Origin: Folioceros fuciformis
Taxonomy: Eukaryota
Length of the DNA: 20,000 nt
Direction: 5' to 3'
Assembly: GCA_049999805.1 (NCBI GenBank)
Contig: JBNGIO010005723.1
Span: forward strand, 58,377 to 78,376
The notes below the pieces were generated by a model. It had not been told where the DNA came from, ran no database searches, and saw nothing but the letters and a program-made list of their open reading frames with translations. Positions 1 to 16,922 of this stretch are shown in pieces (position 1 is the stretch's first letter; each line of letters opens with the position of its first letter). Position numbers and translations under genes: made by a program.

Positions 1-1421
1 AGTGTCACAGAATCAGGTACAACCATTCCATCTTTTTGCATGACACTGTAAAGATGAAGGGCTTCCTGACCCATTCCTTGCTGACAATATCCTGAGATCA
101 TGCCATTCCAAGTGACCACATCTTTTCGAGCAAGTCCGTCAAACACTTTGCGGGCATCTTCTAGGTTGCCGCACTTTGCATACATGTTTACCAAACTATT
201 GGCCACAAAAGTGTCGGCTTGGTGTCCTAGCCCTTTTATCTGCATATGCAAATGCTTACCGTTTTCAAGAGCTGGAGCACCGACACTTGCACACGCCTGG
301 AGGAGGCACACGAAAGTCACAGAATTGGGTACAGACATGCCGTCTTTTTGCATGTCGTTGTACAGGCGAAGGGCTTCCTGGCCCATACCCAACCGGGAAT
401 ATCCTGCGATCAGAGCAGTCCACGTCACGACATCTTTCTCCCCAAGACCGTCAAACACGCTTTGAGCGTCTTCCAAACTGCCGCACTTTGCGTACATGTC
501 CACGACGCAATTACAGACAAACAAGTCACTCTGAAACCGGCTGGCCAATACATGGGCATGCACCTCCTGCCCAGACTCCAAATCTGCTCCTTCGCCACAA
601 GCCTGGAGAGCTGCCACAAACACATGCCCATCCGGCTCCACACCTGACCCCCGCATCCGACGATACAGTTTCATAGCCTGCTTATCTTGCCCGTTCTTCA
701 CATGGGCACATATGATCGAGGACCACATGAAAGCATCTGGTTTGGCCACCAGGGAAAACACATCCATCGCATCTTGCAACCTGCCATGAGAAACATACAT
801 TCGCAGGATGTGGTTGCACAGGAATGTATCCGACCGATAACCTGCTGCAACCGTGAATGCATGGACCCGCCGACCCAGAACAAGATCCTTCTTCACCATA
901 CATTTCTTCAGGACAGTATAAAAAACAGACGTGGAAACACAACAGTCTCTCTGCACTAGAAGTCCCAGGGCTTCCACTGCCTGTGTGAGATTGCCTTGAT
1001 GACATAAAGCGCCGACAGTTTCAGCCGTGACGACCATTTCATGTCCAGCGGCCCTGGCATCACTCGCCAGGCTGCAGTCAGATTCCCTCGTCGCCACATC
1101 TACCGAAAATGGTAACGTCCAGCGAGGATTTTCGGCGACCGATCCGTGCCCAGTCACACGCCCTCCTTGATGAGCTGCCTTTCTTGCAAATGTGCTTAAT
1201 CTAGCTGCTTCCTTGTTCGTCAAGGATCGGTCCCTCAAATTCAGGCGAGCGGGAGCACTTCCTGTAATACCAATTTGCTCGCTCCACCAACACGATCCCC
1301 CCAAGGGGTCTGGTGGTCCTTTCCGTGGATCCACAATCATGCCCCAGACAAGCATGGCGTCTAGGATACGCAGCAAAATTCTCTGCCAAAACCCTACTGC
1401 AAGGGTTAAAGGGTTTAACAT
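1..1421 (-). CDS. PLS-class pentatricopeptide repeat protein #1 (organellar RNA-editing factor family), 3' end beyond window
   Basis: Manual translation of the minus strand is stop-free from 1421 to 1: ...VTAETVGALCHQGNLTQAVEALGLLVQRDCCVSTSVFYTVLKKCMVKKDLVLGRRVHAF...DTFLCNHILRMYVSHGRLQDAMDVFSLVAKPDAFMWSSII...DMYAKCGSLEDAQSVFDGLGEKDVVTWTALIAGYSRLGMGQEALRLY... It is clearly paralogous to the PPRs at 3031-7533 and 14640-16922. First in-frame ATG is 1421, with alternatives at 1355 and 1340. It is not in the ORF track because no stop falls inside the window. Confidence 0.93.
   Translation of the reverse strand, partial: MLNPLTLAVGFWQRILLRILDAMLVWGMIVDPRKGPPDPLGGSCWWSEQIGITGSAPARLNLRDRSLTNKEAARLSTFARKAAHQGGRVTGHGSVAENPRWTLPFSVDVATRESDCSLASDARAAGHEMVVTAETVGALCHQGNLTQAVEALGLLVQRDCCVSTSVFYTVLKKCMVKKDLVLGRRVHAFTVAAGYRSDTFLCNHILRMYVSHGRLQDAMDVFSLVAKPDAFMWSSIICAHVKNGQDKQAMKLYRRMRGSGVEPDGHVFVAALQACGEGADLESGQEVHAHVLASRFQSDLFVCNCVVDMYAKCGSLEDAQSVFDGLGEKDVVTWTALIAGYSRLGMGQEALRLYNDMQKDGMSVPNSVTFVCLLQACASVGAPALENGKHLHMQIKGLGHQADTFVANSLVNMYAKCGNLEDARKVFDGLARKDVVTWNGMISGYCQQGMGQEALHLYSVMQKDGMVVPDSVT
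1389..1396 (+). promoter_or_regulatory. Telobox (AAACCCTA) at the junction of the divergent PPR#1 and GCIP-like genes
   Basis: Exact AAACCCTA at 1389-1396, followed by AGGGTTA/GGGTTT near-copies on the opposite strand (about 1402-1416). Telo-boxes are known plant promoter/5'UTR elements. Function here is inferred. Confidence 0.35.
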
Positions 1422-1504
1422 GTCTAGCAACAATCTGGTTTGATATTTTCTTCAGCCTCTGCTAGCCGTCCGGTGATCCAACCACATTTGGCAAGTGAAC
1501 GGAA

Positions 1505-2856
1505 ATGGGAATACAAGGATTGAAGAAACACGCCCAGGCTGTACGTGAATCGCTCACGGTAATGCTTCTGCAAATTGCTTCGCAGAAGATCTCAAATTCA
1601 TTTGCGTTGTGTTTGACATGTTAGAGCTGCAAATCCTGAATGAATTTTGCGTGGCAGCTGCTGGATGTGCCTGCAATCGATTCTGTTCAGAAAGTACCAT
1701 GGGATGACGTGAAAAAACTTGCAGAGCAAGTATCTAAGCATGCGACAACAGGTAGGGCGGACATCAGGTCTTCCAAAAATTTGCAGATGCTTGCGTCCAG
1801 TCTTGTGGGATGATCCAGCCCAGTTTTGTTGGATGTGTGCAATTCAGTTGGATTGTTGGGAAGTAAACTTGAAGACACAGTTGAAGCCGTGAAGACATAT
1901 TTGGATACACTTGAAGGGTTGGTTCTACTGTCTCATGGGAGCACAGTCGGAGCAGGCCACACGCTTTTAACTGCTGTTCGTGAGAATACTCTCAAAGTGG
2001 TAGAGACGAGCTTGAGCCTCCTGGACACAGCCATGCTTCTAGCCTGTAAAAGTAAGCATCGTTTCCATCAACTGCTTCGTGCACAAGTTGCATGTCGGGA
2101 GCCCTAACTGGGCTAGTTGTGTCTTCAGCAGCTGATGACAGTGAACGAAAGGTCGTCCTACCGACTGCAGTTGGCAAGGTTTGGGAAGCATGCAAGGCTT
2201 TGCAGAAGGTTCCCACGGACAACCGAGCTGCTGTCGGAAGGAGCATAATCCAAGTAATCGCGAGCATGCAAGATGTCACCCGGGAGTTGGATCAGGTCAG
2301 GGAATCTGCTCTGAATGACTCGACTGCCATCTCCGACCTGCGCCTGGATGAGAGAATATCAGATAGTGGTACCAGTAGCAGTCCAGTAGCTCTACTGCCC
2401 GAAGAGGTCCCCCCTTCTCCTGCGGGCGATGACGAAGCCTCTGCCTCCGAGGACATGGATTTCGGCCAAGAACTGTCTGACGAGGAAATGGGAGTGGTGA
2501 AAGCGTCGACGCCGGTGATTGATTCCTTGATCCTAGTGCTCAAGGAAGTGGTCTATGTGGTTGCTGACAAGAAAGCAGAGACACCAGTGGACCACTGGGA
2601 GGGCCTGCTGGCGTGTTGCAAAACCCTGGGAGTGACTGTGGAGGAGCTTGGGTCATTCCTATATCCCCCGCAAGAGCAGGATCAGCTCCAAGGCTGTTTG
2701 CGGAAGCTTAACTATGTATTAGCCCAGGTGCAGGAAGAAATTTTGGGGATGCGGGGCCCCTTGCCAGAGAGCCTTCAAGCAGCATGGGATCACGCGCAGT
2801 CTTCTATAGCTCTTCTCCAGCAGACTTTGAATGCTGCAGATGCCAAACTTGAATGA
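1505..2856 (+). CDS. CCNDBP1: Grap2/cyclin-D1-binding protein (GCIP/CCNDBP1)-like protein, 4 exons
   Basis: GT-AG exons 1505-1558, 1658-1751, 1848-2051, 2129-2856 (alternative NAGNAG acceptor 2132) join in frame. Product: MGIQGLKKHAQAVRESLTLLDVPAIDSVQKVPWDDVKKLAEQVSKHATTVGLL...YLDTLEGLVLLSHGSTVGAGHTL...GKVWEACKALQKVPTDNRAAVGRSIIQVIASMQDVTREL...EELGSFLYPPQE. The HGSTVGAG, VWEAC..L.K.P..N and LYPPQE motifs are recalled from plant GCIP-family proteins. Confidence 0.85.
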
Positions 2857-3030
2857 CCTCGTGTGCAGCAAAGGATACGAGAGTGATATTCCCCTTGAGC
2901 TATCACGAAGCGCTCTCTAGCCGCGAATCAGCTGAATCCAGGTTAACGCGGGCACGCAAGATGTCATTGTCAACCCTAATTGCACACCGTTTGTCATCCG
3001 CGGTGGTCACGTATCGGTAGATTGTCATGT

Positions 3031-6000
3031 CTACTGAGTTCCATTTTCTTCTTGGCCGATATCAAACGTGTCTAGAGCTACAAATGAGTGTTTTTGTTCT
3101 GATTGGGGGGGGATGAAAGTGTCATCTCCAACCAAAAAACTGTGTACTATTCCGTCCATGTCGGCCCACCAACTCTGGCCCGGCTGCTTCCAGGCTCTCG
3201 CTCTTTTTCTCCTGGCATGCAACGCCTGGGCGTGCTCCAACTTCTGGGTAGCGGTGAATAAGTTAGACATCAACACATATGCTGCTGCATCTTGCTCGTC
3301 CAACTTCACTGCTTTCTGGAAGGCATAGCGTCCCATCTCTACGTTGTTCCACTTCCGACAAGCGCCCAACAGAGTGTGCCAGACTGCAGCACTGGGAGGG
3401 ACCGGCATTGTGCTCACCATATCCAGAGCCTCATACAGCTGGCCTGCCCGGCCCAGGAGGTCCACCATGCACGTGTAGTGCTCCACACTAGGAGTGATCC
3501 CGAATTGCTTGCTCATGGCCGCGAAGCATTCTCTCCCCTTGTCTACCAGGCCCGTGTGGCTGCAGACAGTGAGCACACTGAGGAAGGTGATGCCGACTGG
3601 ATCTATGCCAGCTTCTCTCATTTTCTGCAGCAAATCGAACACCACTCTGCTGTTTCCTTGGCAGCTGTAGCCGGCAATCAAAGCACTCCACGCGACAACA
3701 TCTCTGTTTGGCAATGCGTCAAAAACCTGCTGTGCATCCGCCATGCTGCCGGCCTTGGCGTACATGTTTATCAAGCTACTGGCAACAACGACATCAGCTT
3801 GGAGCCCCTGTTCCTCGATCTGTGCATGTAACTGCCTTCCCACATGCAAGGCTGCCACATTTGCACATGCCTGCAGGAGGGCCAGAAAGGTGACGGAATT
3901 GGGCACAGCAATGCGTTCTTGTTGCATTGCCCGGTAAAGGGAGAGGGCTTCGTGCCCCAGGCCCTGCTGAGCGTATCCTGCTATCATGGCGTTCCATGTT
4001 ACCACGTCCTTTTCAGCGAGTCTGTCGAAGGCTCGCTGAGCATCTTCCAAGCTGCCACACTTTGCGTACATGTTTACCAGGCTGCTGCCTACAAACACGT
4101 CGGCTTCGTGCCCTTGTTCTCGAACCTGCGCATGAAGCTGCTTTCCCGTCTCCAAAGCCGACGTGCCCATGCCTGCACACGCCTGCAGGAGGCAAACAAA
4201 TGTGACAGAATCGGGCACGGCTACGCCTTCGTCTTGCATTGCGCTGTAGACACGAATGGCTTCCTGTCCCATGCTCTGCTTGGAGTATCCTGCGATCATA
4301 GCATTCCAGGTAACCACATCCTTCCGAACAAGGCCGTCGAACACACTCTGCGCATCTTCCAAGCTGCCACACTTTGAATACATGTTCACCAAGCTGTTGG
4401 CTACAAACACGTCACTTTGAAGGCCTCGTTCTCGGATTTGCACATGAAGCTGCTTCCCCTTCTCCAGTGCAGAGGGCCCCAAACCGGCACAGGCCCGCAG
4501 GAGGCTTACAAAGGTGATGGAATCAGGTTCATCGATGCCTTCATCTTGCATGTTGCTGTAAAGGGCGAGCGCTCTGTCGCTCATGCCCTGCTGGGCATAC
4601 CCGGCTATCATGGCATTCCATGTCACCACATCTTTCTGACCCAACCCGTCGAACACTCTCTGAGCATCCTCCACGCTGCCACACTTCGCATACATGTTCA
4701 CCAAGCTGTTGGTTATGAACACATCAGCTTGATGTCCCCGTTCTTTGATTTGAGCATGGAGCTGCTTCCCCATCTCCAAAGCTGGGGTGCCCAAACTTGC
4801 ACATGCTTGCAGGAGGCAAACAAATGTGACAGAGTTGGCTACAGCAATGCCTTCTTCTTGCATACGACTGTAGAGGTTAAGGGCTTCCTCGCCCCTGCCC
4901 TGCTGGGAATATCCCGTAATCATGGAATTCCATGTTGCCACCTCCTTTTCACCTAGGCGGTCAAATACTCTCTGAGCGTCTTCCAAGCTCCCACACTTGG
5001 CATACATGTTCACCAAACTGCTGCCAACACACACATCAGCTTGATGTCCTCCTTGTCTAACTTTCGCATGTATCTGCTTCCCCTTCTCCAGTGCCGTCGG
5101 CCCCACACTTGCGCATGCCTGCAAGAGGCAGACAAATGTGACAGCATCCGGCACGGCAATCCCCTCTTCTTGCATGGCACTGTATAAATGAAGAGCTTCC
5201 TGCCCCATGCCCTGATGGGAGTATCCTGCTATCATGGCAGTCCACGTCACCACATCTTTGTCACCAAGTTCTTCAAACGCCTTGCGAGCTTCTTCCAAGC
5301 TGCCACACTTTGTGTACATGTTCACCAAGCTGCTGGCTACAAACTCCTCCGCTTGACTTCCTCGTTCACGAATCTGCATATGAAGCTGTTTTCCCTGCTT
5401 CAAAGCAGGAATGCCCACAGTTGCACATGCCTGCAGGAGGCATACAAACGTCACCGAATTGGGTACAGCAATGCCTTCATCTTGCATGACACTGTAGAGA
5501 TGAAGGGCCTGCTGCCCCATGCCCCGCTGGGAATATCCTGCAATCAGAGCTGTCCAAGTCACCACATCTTTTTGACCAAGTCCGTCAAACACACTCTGGG
5601 CATCTTCAAGACTGCCACACTTTGCATACATGTTCACCAGACTGTTGGCTACAAACACATCAGCTTGATGGCCGTGTTCCCTAATTTGCAAATGAAGCTG
5701 CTTCCCCATCGCCAAAGCTGATGTGCCCACACTTGCACATGCCTGTAGCAGGCACAAAAACGTCACAGAATTGGGTATAACGATGCCTTCTTCCAGCATT
5801 ACACTGCACAGACGAAGGGATTCCTGAGCCATGCCTTGTTGGGAATACCCTGCAATTAGGGCAGTCCATGTCACCACATCCTTTCGAGCAAGTCCTTCAA
5901 ATACTCTCCGAGCATCTTCCAAGCTGCCACATTTTGCATACATGTTCACCAGACTGCTTGCTACAAACACATCAGCTTCATGACCTTGGTCTCTGATTTG

Positions 6001-7533
6001 CTCATGAACTTGCCTCCCCTTCTCCAATGCTGCGGTGCCCAAACCTGCACATGCCTGCAGGAGGCCGACAAACGTAACAGAATCAGGTGTTGCAACGCCT
6101 TCCTCTTGCATGATACTGTAAAGACGAAGGGCTTCATGCCCCATGCCCTGCTGGGAATATCCTGCTATCATGGCATTCCAGGTCACCACGTCCTTTCGAC
6201 CAAGGCCATCAAACACTCTCTGCGCATCCTCCACGCTGCCACACTTTGCATACATGTTCACCAAACTGTTGGCCACGAACACATCAGCTTGATGTCCTCG
6301 ATGATTAATTTGCACATGCAGCTCCTTCCCTTTTTCCAACGCCAGAGTGCCCACACTTGCACATGCCTGCAGGAGACACACGAAAGTAACTGAATCAGGC
6401 ACAGCCCTGCCTTCCTCCACCATGGCACCGTACAGAGCAAAGGCTTCCTGAGCCTTGCCCTGCTGGGAATATCCTCCGATTATGGCATTCCAGGTCACTA
6501 CATCCTTGACAACAAGGCCGTCAAACACGTTTTGTGCGTCTTCCAAACTGCCACACTTGGCATACATGTTCACCAAGCCATTGGCCACAAACAAATCAGG
6601 CTCACCGCCCCTAGCCAACACTTCAGCGTGCACCTGCTGCCCAGTTTTCAAGTCTGATCCCCTTGCACAAGCCTGCAGGGCTGCAACAAACACGTGGCCA
6701 TCTTGCTTCACACGCGACCTGCACATGCGATGATATAGTTGTATGGCCTGCTTCTCTTTCCCCTGTTTCACATGGGCAGAGATGATGGCAGACCATGTGA
6801 AGGCATCAGGCCTGTCAACCTCTGCAAACACATCCATCGCTTCCTGCAGCCTGCCATGGGAGGCATACATCCGCAGGAAATGGTTGCACAGGAACGTATC
6901 CGACTGGTACCCCTTCCTCACCGCCAAAGCATGAACCCGACGACCCAGAACCAGATCCTTCCACTCTGCACATTTCCTCAGGGCATCAGAAAACAGAGAT
7001 TTGGAAACACAGCAGTCTCTCTGCACCAAAATCCCCAAAGCCTCCACAGCCTCAGTCATACAGCCTTCATAACATAGCTTGCTCACGGTTTGAGTCGTTA
7101 CCTCTCTTGCGTGTTCTCTGTAACGATCACAATCCATCTCCATCCCCCCATCCACCTCCACACCCTCACCCATACCCATATCCAAGTCCATGTCCACACC
7201 CATACCCACACCCACACCCACACCTATGTTATCGACAACCCAAGCCCGCTTGTCCAGTTTGTTTAACCAGAGGACCTCCTGGGAAAATTGATTCGAATTC
7301 TGGCTGTGCTTAGCATGCCTGTTATCCCGCCTAACCAGACATCTTCCTGAGCAGCCTGGATTTCTTGCAAAAACGCTGCACACAGATGATTCCTTGTCTC
7401 CCAATGCCTGGTTTGTTGAACCAGCCGACTGCGAGCTCTTCCTGGAACACCTGCCAACCCGCAGCGTAATTGGATCCACGAAAACCGTCCCGACAATGGA
7501 TCCTGCAGCTCTTTGCAGACAGCCATTGCACAT
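3031..7533 (-). CDS. Giant PLS-class PPR protein #2 (~1500 aa; 11 PLS triplets + P2L2S2 + E1 + E2 + WW-type PG box, no DYW catalytic core)
   Basis: Single intronless ORF. The track start at 7545 is GTG and the first ATG is 7533. Repeating P (VVTWNAMIAGYSQQG), L (SVTFVCLLQACA) and S (VFVANSLVNMYAKCGS) motifs are followed by P2-L2 (FLSVLTVCSHTGLVDKG)-S2 (HYTCMVDLLGRAG), E1 (VWHTLLGACRKW), E2 (AYVLMSNLF) and PGQSWWADMDGIVHSFLVGD, then a short tail and stop. Confidence 0.97.
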   Translation of the reverse strand: MCNGCLQRAAGSIVGTVFVDPITLRVGRCSRKSSQSAGSTNQALGDKESSVCSVFARNPGCSGRCLVRRDNRHAKHSQNSNQFSQEVLWLNKLDKRAWVVDNIGVGVGVGMGVDMDLDMGMGEGVEVDGGMEMDCDRYREHAREVTTQTVSKLCYEGCMTEAVEALGILVQRDCCVSKSLFSDALRKCAEWKDLVLGRRVHALAVRKGYQSDTFLCNHFLRMYASHGRLQEAMDVFAEVDRPDAFTWSAIISAHVKQGKEKQAIQLYHRMCRSRVKQDGHVFVAALQACARGSDLKTGQQVHAEVLARGGEPDLFVANGLVNMYAKCGSLEDAQNVFDGLVVKDVVTWNAIIGGYSQQGKAQEAFALYGAMVEEGRAVPDSVTFVCLLQACASVGTLALEKGKELHVQINHRGHQADVFVANSLVNMYAKCGSVEDAQRVFDGLGRKDVVTWNAMIAGYSQQGMGHEALRLYSIMQEEGVATPDSVTFVGLLQACAGLGTAALEKGRQVHEQIRDQGHEADVFVASSLVNMYAKCGSLEDARRVFEGLARKDVVTWTALIAGYSQQGMAQESLRLCSVMLEEGIVIPNSVTFLCLLQACASVGTSALAMGKQLHLQIREHGHQADVFVANSLVNMYAKCGSLEDAQSVFDGLGQKDVVTWTALIAGYSQRGMGQQALHLYSVMQDEGIAVPNSVTFVCLLQACATVGIPALKQGKQLHMQIRERGSQAEEFVASSLVNMYTKCGSLEEARKAFEELGDKDVVTWTAMIAGYSHQGMGQEALHLYSAMQEEGIAVPDAVTFVCLLQACASVGPTALEKGKQIHAKVRQGGHQADVCVGSSLVNMYAKCGSLEDAQRVFDRLGEKEVATWNSMITGYSQQGRGEEALNLYSRMQEEGIAVANSVTFVCLLQACASLGTPALEMGKQLHAQIKERGHQADVFITNSLVNMYAKCGSVEDAQRVFDGLGQKDVVTWNAMIAGYAQQGMSDRALALYSNMQDEGIDEPDSITFVSLLRACAGLGPSALEKGKQLHVQIRERGLQSDVFVANSLVNMYSKCGSLEDAQSVFDGLVRKDVVTWNAMIAGYSKQSMGQEAIRVYSAMQDEGVAVPDSVTFVCLLQACAGMGTSALETGKQLHAQVREQGHEADVFVGSSLVNMYAKCGSLEDAQRAFDRLAEKDVVTWNAMIAGYAQQGLGHEALSLYRAMQQERIAVPNSVTFLALLQACANVAALHVGRQLHAQIEEQGLQADVVVASSLINMYAKAGSMADAQQVFDALPNRDVVAWSALIAGYSCQGNSRVVFDLLQKMREAGIDPVGITFLSVLTVCSHTGLVDKGRECFAAMSKQFGITPSVEHYTCMVDLLGRAGQLYEALDMVSTMPVPPSAAVWHTLLGACRKWNNVEMGRYAFQKAVKLDEQDAAAYVLMSNLFTATQKLEHAQALHARRKRARAWKQPGQSWWADMDGIVHSFLVGDDTFIPPQSEQKHSFVALDTFDIGQEENGTQ
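4069..6567 (-). repeat. Tandem 312-bp PLS cassette array inside PPR#2
   Basis: The Met codon of the S-motif 'NMY' appears on the + strand as CAT at 4069, 4381, 4693, 5005, 5317, 5629, 5941, 6253 and 6565. The spacing is exactly 312 nt over 8 intervals. Confidence 0.95.
7132..7224 (-). repeat. Degenerate hexanucleotide microsatellite coding a (G/D/E)-(V/M) dipeptide tract in the PPR#2 leader
   Basis: CCCACA/CCCATA/TCCATG-type units on the + strand. The minus strand translates as GVGVGVGMGVDMDLDMGMGEGVEVDGGMEMD. Confidence 0.8.
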
Positions 7534-7661
7534 CCTCTCACGCACGCATTAGCAGAGGCATTAGCTGCCTGTCCTGTCGACCCTGTGAAGCTTTGACGTA
7601 CTTTGCTAACGGGTTGAGTGAAAACGCATAGGCCAATACAGAAAACGGGTACCTTCGTAGG

Positions 7662-7701
7662 CGAATCACGAATCAAACGAATCACGACTCACGAATCAAA
7701 C
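7662..7701. repeat. Short tandem CGAATCA repeats upstream of PPR#2
   Basis: cgaatca-cgaatca-aa-cgaatca-cgactca-cgaatca-aac: five 7-mers, one with a mismatch. Confidence 0.7.
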
Positions 7702-7991
7702 TGCCCCCCGATTGCGCCCCTGGATTTTTGAAGTGCGTTTCAGGCCATTTCACCCTTGAGCAATCCCGTACATGTGCTGTGTCTTTGGTAGCCATGGCAT
7801 CAGTTTAACAACCGAGAGATGCCTCTCTTCTTGAGTGGTTCCTGCTAGGAAGACGCTGAAGTTTGAACCACCTTGCGATTTGCGAAAGCATGTTTCTCCC
7901 TATGTATGACGAGACAATAATAGTCTAGTTTCCCCCAAAACCATAGGCCTATGCGATGTTGGAAAAAAACATCTGTTAAGGTAAGGTAAAC

Positions 7992-8105
7992 CAGGCCAAA
8001 ATAGGCCCGAACAGGCCCATACGTTCTGGGGTTAATCGACGAAACGCAAACGGTAGCAATGCCGGCCTGGCCAGGCCTGGCCTAGCCTAGCGCTGGCCCG
8101 GCTGG
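7992..8105. promoter_or_regulatory. GGCC-rich proximal promoter of SGF29 (site II-like elements and palindromes)
   Basis: aggccaaa, aggcccga and aggcccat (AGGCCCA = site II-like TGGGCY) at about 7993-8020. Overlapping 14-bp palindromes ggcctggccaggcc and ggccaggcctggcc at about 8064-8082. All lie about 80-190 nt upstream of ATG 8181. Confidence 0.4.
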
Positions 8106-8180
8106 ATGCCCGGCTTCCTGTCTGGATTGTTGCATCCCATTCGTGAAGGAAGCGAGGTGGCAAGCAAACTGCGCGGCAAG

Positions 8181-9805
8181 ATGGTGGCATCAGGGCAGCA
8201 GCGGGTCGTGGAGAAGGCTGCCAGTGCAGTCACAGAGGAGAAAATGGCGGTGCTGGAGAAGACAACGGAGCATCTGCGAGAGCTGGATCGGCTGCGCAAG
8301 GAGCAGGACACCGTGCACCGCAAGATCAACAAAATTCACGCCAAGCTGTCGCAGATAGGTATCGACGAGGCTGACTGCGATGGAGCAGCTTGATTCAGAT
8401 GCAGCAATGTGAGATGGCGACCGGCTGGAAAGATGTCGATTTTTTTGCTCACTGGCTTTCTTTGCGTCTTTGTATTGTTTGCAGACATATGTAAGGCTGA
8501 GAAATTGGGGGATAAGCTCTGGGTGAAGCTCCGTGGCTTGTATATGACGGCAAAGTCTCTAGCGGAACAAGAGGAACAGTGAGTGAGTGGCTGCTGGTAG
8601 GGGGGTGGGAGGTTTGTGGTTGATTTGCGGGATTTTGTGAGCTTACCAGGGTTTGGCGTGGCAGAACGTCGTTGGATTGTATTAGGGAGCTGGATTCTTA
8701 TTTGGCTCCTGTGCAAGGGCCTTCGAACAGAAAGAAACCAGGTTGAGTGTGGCAGCATTGTTACGCTTGCTCAAGCATTATTGTAGATGGTAACATTCAG
8801 GGATTCATTTGCACCAGATGCGAGTGAACAGAAGAGAAAGAAAGCTAAGCAAGATAATGAGCCTGCGCGGCTGGCTTCGCCAGTGCCCTCTCGTATGCCT
8901 ATCGACCATTCAACCATCTCCCTTGGTGATCAGGTTGTCAAGAACCAGGCTCTGTGGAGTGCTGTCTGTGTGAATGCTGTTACCAAGTAATGTCGGCAGG
9001 GTTTCATAGTGGAGGAACTTGCAGGTAGCAGCTAGGGTGTCGGCGAACGAGGCAGAGAAGGATGACTGGATTGTGGTGAAAGTCACACGATTTGACCGTG
9101 AAAGCAAACAGTATGGATCCTTTCCTCCGCTGTGCTAGTATCCAAGAGCATCGTGAAAGCTTCATCGAAATTCCGTGAACTGTGAATTATTTGTGCAGGT
9201 ATGAAGTTATAGACGAAGAACCTGGTGACGAGGAGGAGAGTGGGCAAAGGTGCGGGTCGCCAACTTCCCCAGTGTTATTTTACTTGTTGCAGCTTGGTCC
9301 ACGACTCAAGCTGAGTGATGTGCCTGTAGGAAATACAAGCTGCCAGCAGCATGCGTCATTCCTTTCCCTAAGCGGACAGATCCATCTAGTGCTCAAGATT
9401 TTCCTGTTGGATCACAAGTTTTGGCTGTCTATCCTGGAACCACTGCCCTGTACAGAGCAGTCGTTGTAGGTCCTGCAAGAAAGGTACTCTGCGTTGAGAG
9501 AAAGTGGAAGCTTGGCCATTTGGTGTCCTTTTCTTTGTATCCGCTATTTCTGGCACTTTCTCACTGGCTCGTATTGTTGCCGCAATTTTTGGGGCCTGGC
9601 AGCGAAAGAGTGACGAGTAAGTCCCTTGCTGTGAAATTGTGCTAAAAGGGTGATCAGTGCGCGGCTGTGTGCTTACGAGTTGATTCGCTTTTGCAGCTAC
9701 TTGCTAGAATTCGATGACGATGAGGAAGAGGGGGTGGACGGGCTCCCGAAGCGTTCTGTCGTGTTCAACTATGTAGTCCAGCTTCCAGAAGGCCACCGTC
9801 AATGA
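8181..9805 (+). CDS. SGF29: SAGA-associated factor 29 (tandem Tudor H3K4me reader), 9 exons
   Basis: GT-AG exons 8181-8358, 8485-8578, 8665-8741, 8818-8933, 9025-9110, 9199-9249, 9330-9483, 9603-9616 and 9697-9805 join in frame. Product includes RELDRLRKEQDTVHRKINKIHAKL...GDQVAARVSANEAEKDDWIVVKV...YEVIDEEPGDEEE...IPFPKRTDPS...VLAVYPGTTALYRA...RKRKSDDYLLEFDDDEE...LPEGHRQ*, matching plant SGF29 motifs. An upstream in-frame ATG at 8106 is also possible. Confidence 0.95.
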
Positions 9806-10058
9806 TGTAAGGAGGCAGGGAGGAAGGGAGGGAGGGAGCGGGTACAACGAAATGTTCATCTCATATCAGCAATGGCGCAAGCCTGAAGTAAGTAGACTGC
9901 CGAGTAGAACGTACGACTGTGTTAGCACTGGTCCCCCAGACGCAGGGGCATGTAACTTAACACACGTTCTTTTGGAGTGTGGCGTTGTAATATATGTAAT
10001 ATGGTTCACCTTTGTGATCCTCGTACGAGGGCCGCTGCCTCTGCACGAGTGCGGCACA

Positions 10059-10409
10059 CTAGTCCTGTTTTGTAACGTCCTTTGACAGCTTCACAAGCTC
10101 CTGGCCCGTCTTGGCCAAGGTATTCCCTGCTTTCTCTAAAGTCCTTCCAGTCCTGTCCAAGATGCAGGCGAGGTACAGTACTGATGCAGCCACACAGAGC
10201 AGGGCCGGCACCATAACGAGCGCCGGAACTGGGCTTGGGGAACAAATAACCTGTTCCCGTCTGGTAACAGAATACTGCAACTGCTCCTGCGCATTATTGG
10301 AACCTACAGAGGACAGACACGCCGAGTCTGTGTCGTCGGTAGTGTCGGCGCTCGAAGCAAAGCTTGCCACGAGCACTGGCGTTCCCGACTTGTCTTCAAT
10401 TAATTTCAT
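10059..10409 (-). CDS. Putative small single-pass membrane protein with C-terminal heptad helix (unknown function)
   Basis: ATG at 10409 gives 116 aa. A hydrophobic stretch PVPALVMVPALLCVAASVLYLACIL is followed by DRTGRTLEKAGNTLAKTGQELVKLSKDVTKQD (7-residue periodicity). A possible 66-nt GT-AG 5'UTR intron lies at 10523-10458. No family recognised. Confidence 0.4.
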   Translation of the reverse strand: MKLIEDKSGTPVLVASFASSADTTDDTDSACLSSVGSNNAQEQLQYSVTRREQVICSPSPVPALVMVPALLCVAASVLYLACILDRTGRTLEKAGNTLAKTGQELVKLSKDVTKQD

Positions 10410-10711
10410 CTCGCCTTCCAACCTCGTCCTTCAGCTAGCTTCCTCGTCCCGTCTCGCCTGTCACGGCACTCAGCAGCAGAAATGCTGTGGAGGGCACTGC
10501 ATGCTTGCAAGACACGGACCTACATAGCTGCGGGCAGGAGCATTGAACAAGTGAGCGCCAAGCGATTCTCTCACGCTCTGGTGTTCGCCCTTCCCGTTCC
10601 AAGCATCAGGTACAGTGACCGGGAACCGGAAATGAACACCATTTCTCATTTTCTAACGGATCAAACCGGTCATTTCTCAGGTCATCTCCACCGCATTCCC
10701 CGTACGAAGCC

Positions 10712-13047
10712 ATGGCCATGGCTTCGGGCTTGGTCGGACTAGCGGGGAGTGTTCCAGCTCGACGACTGGTGGCGGTGGAGAGCGTGCATGAGCAAGCTGT
10801 GGTGAGATTCTGCTAGCCTTATTGGAGTGGACGAGCAGGCGGGGTCGTCATTTGTGGAGGACGGGATTGTGTGGCTGATGAGCCCTGCTGCATTTCACAG
10901 NNNNNNNNNNNNNNNNNNNNNNNNNNNNNNNNNNNNNNNNNNNNNNNNNNNNNNNNNNNNNNNNNNNNNNNNNNNNNNNNNNNNNNNNNNNNNNNNNNNN
11001 GTAGGCATGTCGATACGGCCCTCGATCCTTCATCCTGCGTCGATGCATGCGGTGAGAGCGTCGGCGTCGTCGTTTCAGGCGGCTGAGACGTTGCCTCAAG
11101 GCAGTGTGGATGTGGAGAAGCCGGTGGTGTCGTCGCAGTGGCTGCACTCCAATCTGCAGTCGGAGGATGTTAAGGTTCGTCTTCCACTAGTGGATGAGCT
11201 CGCAGGAACGAGGGGGTGTGCATGTGAGTGAACGATGTTCTTCCGCGCAGGTGCTTGATGCGTCTTGGTACATGCCTGCAGAAGGACGAAGTCCTCGGAA
11301 GGAGTATGAGGTGAGGTGTATCCATTTCGTTTCCCAGGGTTGGTTGGCACCGGTTGAAAGCTGTTTGCAGAGTGCCGCTTTCCGGAATGTTTGTTCAAAT
11401 TGGACTTCTATTGAGCAGGTGTCACACATTCCGAAGGCGCTGTTCTTTGACTTGGACAAAATTGTGGACCTGTCCTCAAATGTGAGTAGTGAACTCATCC
11501 AACAGCAGCAGCCAGCAAGACCTTCATTATCTAGGGCCTCACTATCTCTGCTGTCCTATCAGAGTATGGTTGCAAGTTCATGTATCAAGGGTTGAGGCTG
11601 TATTTCGTGAGTTTCGGACCTATCTTAACTTTGGACGACATGTAATGCAGCTTCCGCACATGTTGCCCTCTGAAGATGCTTTTGCTGCTGCCGTGTCAGC
11701 TCTAGGCATTCAAAACAAAGATTTAGTTGTGGTCTATGATGGCAAGGGCATTTTCAGCGCTGCTCGTGTGTGGTGGTCTGTCTCTGGCACTCAACCTCAT
11801 GTGGATCCTTCTGCTTTCGGTATTTCTGCTACATTGCAGTGCGCTTACGGTAGAGGAGACAAATCTGGGATGTCGCAGGATGTTCAGGGTTTTTGGCCAT
11901 GAGAAGGTGGTAGTCTTGGATGGAGGCCTACCTGGGTGGCGAGCTGCAGGGTATGAAGCTGAAACTGGGGTGGCTACTGAAATTTTGGATAAAGTTGAAG
12001 CCTCAACTGAAGCCGTGAGGAACATACACGATGGCGACCAAGCTCTTCCGTGGGTGCCCTGTCCTCATGAATTGAACTTCGCCGTTGAACATATGACGAC
12101 AACGCACAATATTATCGATAACTTTTTTCTTTTTCTGCCAACAGAACTAACGTATCTTTCAAAGCTGTGCTGCAGCCAAATCTTGTTTGGTCCTTGGAGC
12201 AGGTACTCTTCTTACCATTGTTTCTGCTGAGGATTATATCATTCGGTCAGGTTGATCTTACGAACTTAGTGCAACTGATCTTACGAGTTTTAAAAAACTC
12301 AGGTGAAGCAGAATATTGAAGAGCACAATTTCGAGCTGGTGGATGCCCGCAGCAAGGCCAGGTCCTGCTCCTTCATTTTCTATCTGCTTGCCGGTGAATG
12401 CTGTATTTGCAGAGGGCCGCTGGTATCAGTTCCTCGCACTGATGGCAGGCTTCAAATATCTCCAGGTTTGACGGAACAGCACCAGAACCACGCGCAGGCA
12501 TCAGGGGGGGCCACGTACCCGGAAGCAAGTGTGTCCCATTTACTGAGGCAAGTTTGAGCCTTCTTCTTCCTTGGCCTTGGAAGCTGTCCCTGTGTGTGCT
12601 GTTGGCGTATGGTACTGATCAAGGGTATATAGTCTCCGTCCACAGGTTTTAAGCAACGAAGGCAAGCTCCTACCGAAGGAAGACATAGAGAAAAAGTTTA
12701 CAAAAGCTGGTACGATTTGGATAACGTTTTCACCAAACATGATGCACACTGTGAATGCGCTAAGCGCACTTCAACGTTTTTCTAATGACAGACATTGCGA
12801 TCAAAGGCCCCGTGGTAACGTCTTGCGGGACAGGAGTGACTGCCTGCATACTTGCTCTGGTGAGAAAGCTCATTTGAATGGTCGTTTCCCTCGTACCGGC
12901 GTGGGGGCCTAAATTGTCACCCTTCACTTGCAGGCCCTTTTCCGCTTGGGCAAGAAGGATGTTCCAGTCTACGACGGTTCCTGGACGGAGTGGGGGCTGT
13001 CGCCAGACACGCCAGTATCTGTCACCAAAGAAGTGACAAGATCCTAA
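10712..13047 (+). CDS. STR1: Thiosulfate/3-mercaptopyruvate sulfurtransferase (two-domain rhodanese, STR1/MST1-like) with N-terminal targeting peptide
   Basis: Exons 10712-10801, [gap] 11001-11174, 11251-11310, 11419-11481, 11651-11775, 11879-12049, 12145-12202, 12303-12361, 12466-12547, 12646-12709, 12792-12859, 12934-13047. Motifs: [71 protein letters not shown], active-site loop SCGTGVTAC, and VYDGSWTEW. Confidence 0.95.
10901..11000. other. Assembly gap (100 N)
   Basis: Run of exactly 100 N, a typical placeholder for a gap of unknown size. Confidence 0.99.
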
Positions 13048-13195
13048 GGTGCTCGCATGCACTCCAACTTGTAATAGAATGTTGTGTAGGCCTGAGGAGC
13101 CAACCAAACATTCGGATATCCCCTAGCTATCCTTTCATGACATGCATTTCGCAGTTCTTGAATTCAGCAACACACACCACCCTCCCTGTCTTTGG

Positions 13196-14035
13196 TCATT
13201 GCAGAAAGTAGCCGGCCAGAAAAAGCGCAAAGAAGAAAGCCAAGCTCCCGTAGATCAAGAGACTCTTCTGCCCGGATGTTAGTGAGTTGCCACCCAGGCC
13301 GTAACTCTGGTTCTGCGCGAAACCTGCCACCTCAATGCTCTTGCTCTTGAAGTAGCCCTGTGCAGCTCCGCATGTGGGGCAGAGCCAGTCCTCTGGCAGG
13401 TCCCTGAATGCCATTCCAGGTGCCACTGGGTAGTTCTTATCACCGACAGCTTGGTCGTACACATAACCGCAAGAGGTGCATTCATATATACCCGTGTTGA
13501 GCACAGCGAACCGCTCCTCCAGCCCTTTCACAACCCAACAAAGCACAAGAAACTGTTAGTAAGTGTCTTCCTTCCTTCCTTCCACTGGTGCCATTAGCAT
13601 GTATCTATCTTGCAATCTGCTTGAACGCGCACGGAAGTGCAGAACGAATGAGTACCTCTACGAGGATCCAGCTTATCGGAGCTCTGTGTGCTCGCAGTGG
13701 AAGCCTCATCCTTCTCCTCCTTCTCCACATCCAGAGGACCCGCCTGGCAATGCACATCTAGTCTTTGCCTCTGCCTCCTGTTGCTGTTGTTGCCCACCAC
13801 CGAGCTCAAGGTAGGCACGACGGCGAGTGTCTGACACAGGTCACTTGATGCTAAGCAGAGCAGCAGGAATTGCGCTGGGCAGGGCAGCTCAAGGCGTGGC
13901 TCAGAGCAATGTCTTTCTCACCTGAGGCAGTCCCCATGCCGAGACCGTGACCGGACGCAGTTTCGCGCATTGGCTGCGTCCAGCAGCGCCAGGCAGCAGA
14001 GTCCTGGCACACGTTCCACCCAAGCTCCCTGCCAT
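13196..14035 (-). CDS. RBD1: Plastid thylakoid rubredoxin (RBD1/RubA-like), 3 exons
   Basis: Exons (minus strand) 14035-13922, 13830-13656 and 13524-13196 join in frame to 205 aa. Start context gccATGgca, then a transit-like N-terminus. Core: DKLDPRRGLEERFAVLNTGIYECTSCGYVYD...DLPEDWLCPTCGA (two CxxC). C-terminus: AGFAQNQSYGLGGNSLTSGQKSLLIYGSLAFFFALFLAGYFLQ* membrane anchor. Confidence 0.95.
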
Positions 14036-14639
14036 GGCTCTCGAGCAGTTGCGCGCACCAATTTCAGCCCAACACACTTCACTCCGGTTTCACATCCTAA
14101 GCCACTACCCAACAGGATAGTGACCAGTGAGAGACCGCCATATGGATTTGATTAACCGGGCCCTTTCCGAGCAGATATAACACGCGGGACCCATCGCGCG
14201 CTGCCCTTGGTGGCAACTTGAATCCTAGCAAATGCAGAGCAACTTGTTGCCTTCGTGTGGTACATACTCCATTGGATTCCGTTGTGAGGCTGCGGTATGT
14301 CGTCAACCAATCTTTGCTGAGGTACGCATGGATACCACAGCACAGAATGATGAGATTCCATCAGTTGTGGTTCGAGACTGTGTTGCAGGTACGCCACCGT
14401 GAGTGATGTCTGCCCTCTCTTATCGCACTTTTGTGGGTGTCCCAGGCGTTCCAGTAGTCCTCACTCGATCATGCAGGGATTTCCAACTTTTTCATCGTGG
14501 AGAAGAACTGTTTCTATGCCATCGCTCTCCGAAAGTGAAGACGCCTATGTAACGCTGAAACAACGACCAAGCCCAGACCTCTGCCTGGCGAAGACGATGT
14601 CTTGCCACCAGCTCTTGGGTCGATATTTGTCTCTGGACC

Positions 14640-16922
14640 ATGCGCGTTGTTTGGATGGCAAGCAAAATGCAGAGACTGGGAAACGATGGCTACGGGCCAG
14701 CTCGGGTGAAAATGCAGCTGGCTGCACTGGATTGGCAGATGGGTCGTCGTGCACCTGTATCCACCTGGGGAGTGCCGGATGATCACGACTCTGGCAGGCC
14801 TACAGGATATCCGAGGAGCGTGACGGCTGGAGCCGTGACCCACCTGTGTGAGGAGGGGCAGCTCGGTGAGGCTGTTGAAGCTTTGGGAGTGCTGGTGCAG
14901 GCAGGCTGTCGTGTTTGCCGATCTCTTTTCTACAGAGTCATCAAGAGGTGTGTTGTTCAAAGGGATCTGGTTCTGGGTCGCCGGGTCCATGCTCTCACTG
15001 TGGAAGGGGGATATCAATCGGACACGTTCCTGTGCAACCACGTTCTGCGAATGTATTCGTCTCATGCCAGGTTGCAAGAAGCGATGGATGCTTGTGCACT
15101 GGTGGCCAAGCCTGATGCTTTCATGTGGTCCTCCATAATCTCTGCCCATGTAAAACACGGACAGGATAAGGAGGCTATACAACTCTATCATCGTATGTGT
15201 ATGTCGAGTGTGAAGCCAGATGGGCATGTGTTTGTAGCCGCCCTTCAGGCTTGTGGAAGGGCAGCAGACTTGAAAACTGGCCAGCGGGTGCATGACGATG
15301 TGTTGGTCAGTGGAGTAGAGCCTGATTCCTTCGTGTGTAATACTTTGGTAGACATGTATGCCAAGTGTGGCAGCTTGGTAGACGCACGAAAAGTCTTCGA
15401 CGGATTAAGTCAAAAAAATGTGGTGACATGGAATGCCCTGATAGCAGGGTATGCCCAACAGGGTATGGGATGGGCAGCCCTTCATCTTTACAGTGTTATG
15501 CAAGAAGGTGTTGTTTCGCCCGATTCTGTGACATTTATGTGCCTCCTTCAGGCATGTGCTATTGTGGGGAGTCCTGCGTTGCGAGAGGGGAGGCAGCTTC
15601 ATACGCAAATCAGAGAACAAGAATACCAAGCTGATGTGTCCGTAGGAAACAGCTTGGTGAACATGTATGCAAAATGTGGCAGCTTGGAAGAGGCCCGAAA
15701 AGTGTTTGACGGGCTTGCTCAAAAGGATGTTGTCACATGGACAGCTTTGATGGCAGGATACTCCCAGCAAGGCATGGGCCAGGAAGCCCTTTGTCTTTAT
15801 GGTGCTATGCAAGAAGAAGGCATGGCTGTGCCTGATTCCGTGACTTTCGTGTGCCTGCTGCAGGCATGTGCAAGTGTAGGCGTCCTAGCTTTGGAAAAGG
15901 GGAAGCAGCTACATGGCAAAGTCAGAGAACGAGGACTTGAAGCTGATGTGTATGTAGCCAGCAGCTTGGTAAACATGTATGCGAAGTGTGGCAGCCTAGA
16001 GGAAGCACGAAATGTGTTTGACAGTCTCGGTGGAAAGAATGTGGTAACCTGGACTACTCTGATTGCAGGATATTCTCAGCAGGGAATGGGTCAGGAAGCT
16101 CTTCATCTCTACCGTGCCATGGGAGAAGAAGGGGTTGTGCCACCCGATTCCATTACGTTTGTGTGCCTCCTGCAGGCATGTGCAAGTGTGGCAGCTTTGC
16201 ATGTGGGCAGACAGCTTCACTCACAGATTGAAGATCAAGGGCTTCAAGCTGGTGCAACTCTGGCCATCGGCTTGATTGACATGTACGCAAAATCAGGAAG
16301 CATGGTCGATGCACAGAAGGTGTTTGACGAAATGCCGGAAAGAGACGTTGTCGCCTGGACTGCACTGATAGCAGGATATACCCGTCAAGGAGACAGCGAA
16401 CAAGTCTTTCAGCTGGTTCTCAGGATGAAGGAGGAGTGCATACAGCCAGACAGCGTCACATTGCTCAGTGTGCTAACAGTGTGTAGTCATACAGGCCTAG
16501 TGAACGAAGGGCGAGAGTACTTTGAGGCTATGAGTGGAGACTACGGCATCACTCCCACGATGGAACACTATGCATGCATGGTGGATCTCCTGGGTCGTGC
16601 AGGCCGACTGGATGAGGCTCTCGAGGTGGTGAGGGCAATGCCTGTACAGCCTGATGCTGCAGTTTGGTGCGCACTACTGGGTGCTTGTCAAAAGTGGGGC
16701 AGCGTGGAGGTGGGACTCCATGCTTGTGACGAGGCAATGAAGCTGGACAGAAAAGATGCTGCAGCATATGTGTTGATGTCCAATATATATGCGGGTGCCC
16801 AGATGTGGGAGGAGGCACAAGAGATGCAGGCCAGGCGAACGAGAATTAGGGCATGGAAGTATCCCGGCCAAAGCTGGTGGACAGACATGGACGGACAAGT
16901 CCACAGGTTTGGTTGGGGATAA
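14640..16922 (+). CDS. PLS-class PPR protein #3 (760 aa; 5 PLS triplets + P2L2S2 + E1 + E2 + WW-type PG box, truncated)
   Basis: Intronless ORF with the same N-terminal cap, internal cassettes and terminal block as PPR#2, ending RAWKYPGQSWWTDMDGQVHRFGWG*. The true start is uncertain (see findings). Confidence 0.95.
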   Translation: MRVVWMASKMQRLGNDGYGPARVKMQLAALDWQMGRRAPVSTWGVPDDHDSGRPTGYPRSVTAGAVTHLCEEGQLGEAVEALGVLVQAGCRVCRSLFYRVIKRCVVQRDLVLGRRVHALTVEGGYQSDTFLCNHVLRMYSSHARLQEAMDACALVAKPDAFMWSSIISAHVKHGQDKEAIQLYHRMCMSSVKPDGHVFVAALQACGRAADLKTGQRVHDDVLVSGVEPDSFVCNTLVDMYAKCGSLVDARKVFDGLSQKNVVTWNALIAGYAQQGMGWAALHLYSVMQEGVVSPDSVTFMCLLQACAIVGSPALREGRQLHTQIREQEYQADVSVGNSLVNMYAKCGSLEEARKVFDGLAQKDVVTWTALMAGYSQQGMGQEALCLYGAMQEEGMAVPDSVTFVCLLQACASVGVLALEKGKQLHGKVRERGLEADVYVASSLVNMYAKCGSLEEARNVFDSLGGKNVVTWTTLIAGYSQQGMGQEALHLYRAMGEEGVVPPDSITFVCLLQACASVAALHVGRQLHSQIEDQGLQAGATLAIGLIDMYAKSGSMVDAQKVFDEMPERDVVAWTALIAGYTRQGDSEQVFQLVLRMKEECIQPDSVTLLSVLTVCSHTGLVNEGREYFEAMSGDYGITPTMEHYACMVDLLGRAGRLDEALEVVRAMPVQPDAAVWCALLGACQKWGSVEVGLHACDEAMKLDRKDAAAYVLMSNIYAGAQMWEEAQEMQARRTRIRAWKYPGQSWWTDMDGQVHRFGWG

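Follow-up and report, generated by a model that had tools for sequence, protein, structure and literature searches.

Three genes encoding PPR proteins, PPR1, PPR2 and PPR3, lie in the window, the whole 20,000-nt stretch of DNA analysed here (Table 1). PPR1 extends ~2,350 nt past the left edge of the window; its full ORF of 1266 aa comprises the cap, six LL cassettes, a terminal P-L35-S triplet, P2-L2-S2-E1-E2 and the PG box (PGQSWW), without a deaminase. In line with the preliminary description, all five cap motifs were found in the translations of all three ORFs, PPR2 and PPR3 have a terminal block in common, in which the full PPR1 ORF ends too, and the 37-aa L motifs number eight in PPR2, two in PPR3 and one complete copy in the windowed part of PPR1 (six in the full ORF). 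The same description called the cassettes near-identical, and this did not hold: at the protein level those of PPR2 share only 64-78% identity, and at the DNA level 73-79%. PPR2 aligns to residues 306-503 of the PPR-DYW structure 9kfx (E 1e-89), and its translation downstream of the PG box contains neither HxE nor CxxC. The PDF remnant upstream of the PPR2 cap scores 19.4 bits, compared to about 80-106 bits for intact PDF copies.

Table 1. Features of the three PPR loci in the window
Feature	Positions	Strand	Basis or remark
PPR1, 5' part	1..1451 (ORF 3-1451)	-	ORF translation
PPR1 cap, Lc34-S0-P0-L0-S	432..929	-	motif layout
PPR2 ORF, intronless, 1505 aa between stops	3031..7548	-	predicted from ORF
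PPR2, decayed in-frame remnant of OSB-type PDF motif, upstream of cap	7222..7389	-	ends approximate
PPR2 cap, Lc34-S0-P0-L0-S	6502..6999	-	AVEALG helix immediately upstream
PPR2, eight P36-L37-S31 cassettes	4006..6501	-	312 nt each
PPR2 terminal P36-L35-S31 triplet	3700..4005	-	ACANVAALHVGRQLH
PPR2 P2-L2-S2-E1-E2	3190..3699	-	
PPR2 WW-type PG box	3124..3189	-	sole conserved piece of DYW domain
PPR3 ORF, 787 aa stop to stop	14559..16922	+	
PPR3 cap, Lc34-S0-P0-L0-S	14922..15419	+	
PPR3, two P-L37-S cassettes	15420..16040	+	first P is 35 aa
PPR3 terminal P-L35-S, P2-L2-S2-E1-E2, PG box	16041..16919	+	end 21 aa past E2

The layout, P-L-S triplets followed by P2-L2-S2-E1-E2, is that of PLS-class editing factors, and the 5th and last residues switch among canonical states in the P motifs of 291 and the S motifs of 265 of 307 cassettes. 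These code residues do vary, but they rank only 38th-43rd in variability among the 104 cassette positions, of which only 33 are at least 90% conserved. An ‘LL’ motif was reportedly named by Gutmann et al. in 2020 and a ‘WW’ type by Gerke et al. in the same year. L motifs of the PLS class measure 35-36 aa (PMC12733224); the internal ones here, with 37 aa, are a length variant, while those of cap and terminal triplet have 34-35 aa.

Genome-wide, the exact cap pattern matched 240 times and its reversed control not once, so the cap is not a chance pattern. The PGxSWW pattern, with 338 matches against 8 in the control, sets a lower bound for the family; the WW genes sampled are ~75 of these at least 338, many picked by likeness to the PPR2 cap. 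PPR1, PPR2 and PPR3 are members of a family of hundreds, not a three-gene subfamily. The cap is indeed common to all three, as had been proposed for a single subfamily, but is not specific to it, as it also heads the DRH and GRP DYW:KP genes of the same genome, which suggests a hornwort. The KP box, HAE and DRH/GRP end that define the DYW:KP U-to-C factors do not characterize the WW proteins. Among the 120 listed of 1781 PPR2 relatives in a protein database from which close hornwort proteomes are seemingly missing, there was no close relative (best 53%), no PGxSWW box and no run of 37-aa L motifs, a single such motif occurring in three. No cap relatives were found in a metagenome scan, no RNA-recorded run among the matches listed in a sequencing-run search and no RuBisCO large-subunit (rbcL) match in the assembly contigs. 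Syntenic counterparts of PPR1 and PPR2 occur in related organisms, with ~91% likeness at the PPR2 terminal block; the syntenic PPR2 locus has the order GCIP-PPR2-SGF29. From this conserved location the amplification predates the split from these organisms. None of the matches listed was a contig from another organism covering a whole cassette array.

An intact deaminase (HxE(x)nCxxC) in cis was absent from PPR1-PPR3 and from 74 of 74 WW genes, and the seven loci translated from a genome-wide WW-to-HSE pattern yielded none either. The WW C-terminus consists of 20-27 conserved aa and an unconserved tail (median total 44 aa, shortest tail 20 aa), and decayed DYW remnants persist behind the PG box. 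The PG box itself is strongly conserved, with G174, W178, G183 and F188 invariant in 60/60, and everything behind it is decayed. The proteins thus end soon after E2 with the PG box kept, as truncated, CRR4-like E2/E+ proteins do; CRR4 ends 27 aa past E2 and requires DYW1 (bioRxiv 10.1101/2024.01.16.575875).

Complementary loci exist in the same genome. L117, L131 and L132 contain intact HSE..CxxC..DYW, no PG box and, in the sequence read, no PPR; on the scanned stretches Pfam returned DYW_deaminase only. With their deaminase intact, PPR motifs few or absent and the PG/E+ region deviant, these three, L132 being incomplete with its 5' end off its contig, are DYW1-like as gene models built from genomic sequence alone. 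On structure 9kfx PPR2 reaches residue 503 and the donor profile spans residues 525-612. An AlphaFold model of a donor alone was of low confidence (pTM 0.41), and the YPRH DNA pattern, used for more donors, matched at chance level (39 vs 39 in the control). Six canonical complete PPR-DYW genes (L111-L116) are also present and could be donors in place of these three. The OSB-type PDF motif is present in L117 and L131. It is intact in 22/40 DYW:KP genes, which have their own deaminase, against 3/59 WW genes; the profile was built from 16 of these PDF-positive KP genes, and among the KP genes outside this seed 6/24 have the motif intact. Searches with this profile retrieved proteins named OSB1, OSB2 and OSB3 (4/10 looked up), and 11/16 scanned PDF-profile proteins had an SSB domain match; the ESM Atlas gave no name for the motif, and a word-index search only 2 proteins.

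Cassette number ranged from 0 to 11 per gene (307 cassettes, 71 genes). DNA identity was 0.730 within genes, 0.725 between genes and 0.726 at the same array position. Accordingly, the cassettes group neither by gene nor by array position, and neither of the two outcomes that the preliminary description had foreseen was obtained. Near-identical repeats clustering within genes, the hallmark of a TALE-like array, were not observed: none of 46,971 pairs exceeded 0.85 and none 84.3% DNA identity, counts in which perfectly identical duplications, possibly collapsed in the fragmented assembly, would go unseen. At four-fold sites identity was 0.51 for cassettes, 0.54 for caps and 0.50 for tails, well above the about 0.30 of random sequence; genes and cassettes are therefore equally old and unsaturated. 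The cap-versus-tail Mantel correlation was significant but tiny (rho 0.08).

The P5 code allele belongs to a haplotype of 12 nt that includes linked silent sites, the all-T form being observed 30 times vs 2.4 expected and the all-N form 138 times vs 73. Codons 6 and 8 contain silent sites free of CpG context that are in linkage with the P5 allele (r2 0.14-0.24), more weakly in a second set of 70 cassettes (0.19 and 0.07). Linkage falls near null past about 30 nt. Both P5 alleles are found at each position of the array, and 34/42 genes contain the two together. Two loci read from the assembly, L043 and L071, are chimeras in which a WW-type start is joined to a DRH deaminase. The common code switches are all single-base changes. 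Linkage between the P35 silent site and the last residue (P35/P36) was rejected as recombination evidence, as CpG decay explains it. Exact common DNA runs, which reach 55 nt except for a single 173-nt duplicate at a broken locus, were likewise not counted as signs of exchange; they lie in the most conserved motifs and were scored without a null model.

Taken as a whole, the sequence data make it probable that the WW PPRs are old, recombination-mixed C-to-U specificity factors for organelle RNA that work with DYW1-like donors in trans. The 5th and last residues of P and S motifs would read RNA at one base per motif, by a code that is established for PPR proteins and presumably applies to WW proteins. 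The clade may have been founded by a single gene that had the cap, an LL cassette and an entire DYW domain of the HSE type, and one old burst would have amplified both genes and cassettes. Recombination between copies probably moved code alleles as short tracts, with crossovers altering cassette number and now and then exchanging ends between clades. Such exchange would have blended the cassettes into a single pool, after which the genes may have diverged mostly independently. The deaminase behind the PG box has decayed, and given this decay, catalysis would have to come in trans, most likely from L117, L131 and L132, in the manner of Arabidopsis CRR4 and DYW1, giving C-to-U editing.

Two other histories of the cassettes seem to us quite improbable, and about equally so. 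One is an actively reprogramming TALE-like scaffold that still gains targets via intragenic triplet duplication and loss plus code swaps. The variable cassette number (0-11 across 71 genes) fits it, and so does a small within-gene excess (+0.006 residual identity, p about 0.0005), from which some intragenic duplication took place: the nearest neighbour lies in the own gene for 13/307 cassettes vs 4.5 expected, 58/693 within-gene vs 1275/46,278 between-gene pairs lie above 2 SD, and the best pair (0.843) consists of neighbours in one gene. Yet no pair exceeds 85% DNA identity, none of 693 within-gene pairs has at least 7 rare alleles in common, neighbouring genes resemble each other no more than random ones do (residual 0.0002) and loci are syntenic in other organisms. 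Of the programmable TALE-like scaffold proposed earlier, variable number between fixed ends, code switching and traces of recombination are supported; current gain by near-identical triplet duplication is not. That the 5th/last residue code confers programmability has been published for all PPR editing factors (PMC12733224). The other history has an ancestral cassette copied in a burst and then shaped by point mutation and selection alone, with independent code switches and no real part for recombination. Star-like distances, the single-base switches and the P35 link, which fits CpG decay and not descent, agree with it, but the CpG-free linkage of codons 6 and 8 to P5, the distribution of both P5 alleles over positions and genes and the two WW/DRH mosaics argue against it.

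As for catalysis, WW proteins might bind RNA and obtain activity from canonical full-length PPR-DYW proteins, or serve a non-editing role (stabilisation, processing), the PG-less DYW proteins doing something else. Complete DYW:PG genes are present, and in Arabidopsis a single DYW donor that has some PPR motifs acts for many partners (PMC10226603). We consider this unlikely, though less so than either alternative history, because the PG box is conserved and the rest behind it decayed, while the stand-alone deaminases lack exactly the PG box piece. A bolder form of the preferred reading, that of trans-acting DYW1-like donors, has in our view somewhat less than even chances: a non-vascular plant may have independently evolved a genome-scale split editosome. 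Several hundred catalytically dead guides would be built from recombination-mixed 312-nt cassettes, with short conversion tracts having carried the specificity alleles, the WW-type PG box of the guides would plug into just three PPR-free deaminases bearing the OSB-type single-strand-binding PDF motif, and occasional crossovers would re-attach a WW start to a U-to-C deaminase.

In hornworts over a thousand organelle sites are edited, and a large part of the PPR genes has no catalytic domain. Three named candidate deaminases make the missing-enzyme question testable in an E. coli editing assay. If the proposal is true, split editing factors reach beyond vascular plants, where DYW1-like proteins have been placed (bioRxiv 10.1101/2024.01.16.575875). 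As in CRR4 with DYW1 (and E+ PPRs with DYW2), the PPR protein ends ~27 aa past E2 with the PG box only, and the short candidate partner combines an intact deaminase with a deviant gating region. CRR4 and DYW1 pair one to one, in contrast to hundreds of WW PPRs to three candidate donors; unlike DYW1, donors of the L117/L131/L132 type have a long low-complexity linker and, in L117 and L131, an OSB-type PDF motif, and unlike CRR4, the WW proteins show a one-residue WW insertion within the PG box.

The hornwort PLS-class E+/truncated-DYW expansion (Anthoceros) is similar in its very large intronless PLS family with many C-terminal truncations and in having DRH and GRP DYW:KP sister groups in one genome; the available portions of the publications (PMC13386178, PMC7027989, PMC10030945, PMC9478123) do not describe the fixed cap, 37-aa L motif, cassette pool or stand-alone donors. 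According to the same literature, hornworts are enriched in E+ proteins (PMC13386178) and DRH and GRP DYW:KP are hornwort variants (PMC9478123). These U-to-C factors share the cap, a P motif of 36 aa and an ancestral PDF motif with the WW genes, but possess their own deaminase and 35-aa L motifs, with 37-aa L in only 4 of ~40 examined. TAL effectors and restorer-of-fertility-like P-class PPRs also combine fixed ends with variable, code-bearing repeats reshaped by recombination. Their repeats are recent and highly similar, with fast turnover, whereas WW repeats differ by ~27% in DNA and their loci are syntenically stable; the cassette statistics point to specificities from an old burst and recombinational mixing, not from continuing TALE-like turnover. 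For designer editors, the uniform cassette offers a natural template. In OSB proteins the PDF motif is fused to an OB fold, and in the present loci to PPR arrays or a deaminase.

Motif parsing of the three intronless PLS-class PPR ORFs in the window (PPR1-PPR3) gave one common layout: an Lc34-S0-P0-L0-S cap, n cassettes (P36-L37-S31), P36-L35-S31, P2-L2-S2-E1-E2 and a PG box. All motifs quoted in the preliminary description were found in these ORFs, but its cassettes were wrongly called near-identical, as identity among those of PPR2 is 64-78% for residues and 73-79% for bases. The N-terminal linker of PPR2 (window 7138-7222) carries a low-complexity run of GV/GM/DM dipeptides.

Features of the window and loci of the same genome discussed in the text
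Feature	Location	Strand	Remarks
PPR1	3-1451	-	6 cassettes and the same end as the others, once completed from adjoining DNA
GCIP-like gene	~1490-2856	+	
PPR2	3031-7548	-	8 cassettes
SGF29 tudor gene	~8180-9805	+	
Gene	~10720-13047	+	No Pfam match in the piece scanned; N gap at 10901-11000; presumably rhodanese/sulfurtransferase-like by its motifs
Rubredoxin gene	13196-13800	-	
PPR3	14559-16922	+	2 cassettes
Cytochrome P450 gene	~17550-19475	+	
L043	693-3311		WW-type cap and one LL cassette on DRH array and DYW:KP domain
L071	351-3356		As L043; assembly gap inside
L117	G000:C2033		DYW deaminase gene, candidate DYW1-like donor
L131	G000:C2365		DYW deaminase gene, candidate DYW1-like donor
L132	G000:C1291		DYW deaminase gene, candidate DYW1-like donor

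Cap-bearing genes with a PGxSWW box are here called WW genes and cassettes with a 37-aa L motif LL cassettes, labels that reportedly go back to Gerke 2020 and Gutmann 2020. Genes were taken from cap and PGxSWW match lists and from DYW searches. A first set comprised 237 exact-length cassettes from 56 regularly parsed genes out of 61 (5 irregular ones were dropped); cassettes of one gene had a DNA identity of 0.730, those of different genes 0.726, and those at the same position likewise 0.726. The result held when 15 more genes, chosen from the pattern list by contig order, were added. Over all 71 genes (0-11 cassettes each; n = 307), identity was 0.730 within and 0.725 between genes, with a maximum of 0.843. 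None of 46,971 pairs exceeded 0.85, in a sample of ~75 of at least 338 WW genes and in a fragmented assembly that could mask perfectly identical duplications but not 85-97% ones. The nearest neighbour lay inside the own gene for 13 of 307 cassettes (4.5 expected), and the within-gene excess (+0.006, p ~0.0005, persisting under GC3 control) is real but small. The positional excess was +0.0006, and no excess cassette likeness was found between neighbouring genes. Four-fold site identity was 0.51 in cassettes, 0.54 in caps and 0.50 in tails against ~0.30 at random; genes and cassettes therefore expanded long ago and roughly simultaneously, and they form one pool. With within-gene identity close to between-gene identity and no pair above 0.85, the proposed actively programmable, TALE-like scaffold is not supported; the data support an old cassette pool mixed by recombination. 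Altogether, the pattern is real and well formed, in a known protein class.

The code positions toggle among canonical states (P in 291, S in 265 of 307 cassettes) and rank only 38th-43rd of 104 in variability. The P5 allele is part of a haplotype of 12 nt that reads N-A-M-I or T-A-L-I and includes silent third positions in linkage (r2 0.14-0.24). At these four sites, picked from the first set, pure haplotypes were in excess (N-A-M-I 138 versus 73 expected, T-A-L-I 30 versus 2.4); the second set again showed an excess (7 versus 0.3) with weaker r2 (0.19 and 0.07). Outside the haplotype codons the two P5 classes differed significantly only at P34, and mean linkage was near null past ~30 nt. No array position lacked either allele, and 34 of the 42 genes with at least 3 cassettes contained both. 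Short-tract conversion or repeated crossover would be the simplest reading. Six genes (L032, L092, L094, L102, L104, L141) have an additional motif of 31 aa inserted in the array, a hybrid that starts as P and ends as S, which is consistent with out-of-register crossover.

In a cap tree built by a quick method, 59 WW caps and two DRH-tailed genes formed one group (SH-aLRT 97), with the GRP caps as its sister (99). Motif-by-motif scoring of L043 gave nine WW-like and then five DRH-like motifs, and L071 showed the same switch, against a background of 1/1311 and 2/382 misassigned motifs. Because each of the two loci was found via the other and no DYW domains are closer than theirs (85%), one putative real event is favoured over misassembly. 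Four GRP genes (L092, L094, L095, L102) have caps sister to WW caps and tails nearer DRH (49% versus 39% aa), a discord suggesting that the whole clade may be of old chimeric origin.

A genome search with the PPR2-type cap returned, among its best 150 matches, 149 at 64-76% identity. Counted as lower bounds, the exact cap pattern occurred at least 240 times (control 0) and PGxSWW at least 338 times (control 8). The cap also heads DYW:KP genes ending in DRH or GRP, which are described as hornwort variants (PMC9478123); their L motifs have 35 aa, with one 37-aa L in 4 of ~40 genes. Six canonical DYW genes all lacked the cap. Since four database proteins with L motifs of only 35/36 aa carry a related cap, the cap predates the 37-aa L. 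Hornworts are described as enriched in the E+ subgroup, with 1,583-2,308 PPRs per genome, mostly intronless dispersed copies (PMC13386178; PMC7027989). These features point to a hornwort as the source of the window. Among the first 100 cap matches listed, opposite-strand caps stood 1.6-2 kb apart in head-to-head pairs on contigs C970, C1771, C3079, C4611 and C5690; DRH genes also form tail-to-tail pairs. L067:1-1911 and L100:168-3257 belong to another truncated PLS subfamily with L motifs of 51-52 aa, similar in length to those of database proteins P0019, P0058, P0079 and P0085. In two short near-duplicate genes (L134:547-1137, L135:1782-2021), array and PG region are deleted and part of the cap lies directly on the DYW:KP core.

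Four sequencing runs were aligned to the window. Single contigs of organisms B and E join the PPR1 start to the GCIP gene and the PPR2 start to the SGF29 gene, and the PPR2 terminal block matched in B, C and E with 30-36 differences per ~400 bases; thus, the loci are older than these lineage splits, and the paralogues, 27% apart, are older still. Among the matches listed, no contig of another organism spanned any of the cassette arrays.

A candidate split editor is a more interesting lead than the cassette pattern. None of 74 WW genes has an intact deaminase, and conservation of WW proteins stops 20-27 aa past E2. A few WW genes retain decayed in-frame DYW remnants, therefore the founder had a deaminase. 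Similarly, Arabidopsis CRR4 ends 27 aa past E2, and CRR28 cut there depends on DYW1 (bioRxiv 10.1101/2024.01.16.575875); DYW1-type supply in trans also appears in PMC7611903, PMC10226603 and PMC11094755. L117, L131 and L132 are mutually related; all three keep HSE, CxxC and the DYW end intact and lack a PG box, and the sequence read showed no PPR motifs in them. Two database homologues were found. On the solved PPR-DYW 9kfx, PPR2 aligned as far as residue 503, and the match to the donor profile began at 525. A PDF motif split by an intron and a possible transit peptide occur in L117 and L131. The motif upstream of the cap is this PDF motif of OSB proteins, which in OSB1 is enough alone for ssDNA binding (PMC6963530). 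It is intact in 22 of 40 DYW:KP genes, 16 of which seeded the profile, and in 3 of 59 WW genes; the PPR2 copy is decayed. Since WW proteins lost the deaminase and mostly also the PDF motif and the donors carry both, we infer that WW PPRs and stand-alone DYW donors may form a putative split editor. Alternatively, canonical DYW genes could act as donors for WW PPRs; the stand-alone proteins are the candidates put forward here. PDF motifs also precede PLS arrays in the lycophyte Diphasiastrum (P0007, P0046, P0061, P0076) and the liverwort Calypogeia (P0033, P0039, P0043), and some of these proteins have two or three copies.

PPR code, synthetic reprogramming and trans-donation (PMC12733224) and hornwort PPR expansion (PMC10030945; PMC8075897) are already published. 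Our literature search, which covered listings for all but the papers cited above by identifier, found no paper on a hornwort DYW1-like donor, PDF-PPR fusion or cassette conversion; the WW type, the long L motif or the donors may have been described before in Gerke 2020 and Gutmann 2020 or in the supplements of these two key papers.

Pieces of run X3 (F. fuciformis, presumed to be RNA) start immediately after AG acceptors (2132, 9697), and the run partially covers PPR1, PPR2 and PPR3, which hints at transcription of the PPR genes. One X3 contig (window 2132-3480) runs from the last GCIP exon (+) through to the PPR2 3' end (-); the two transcripts are convergent and possibly overlap.
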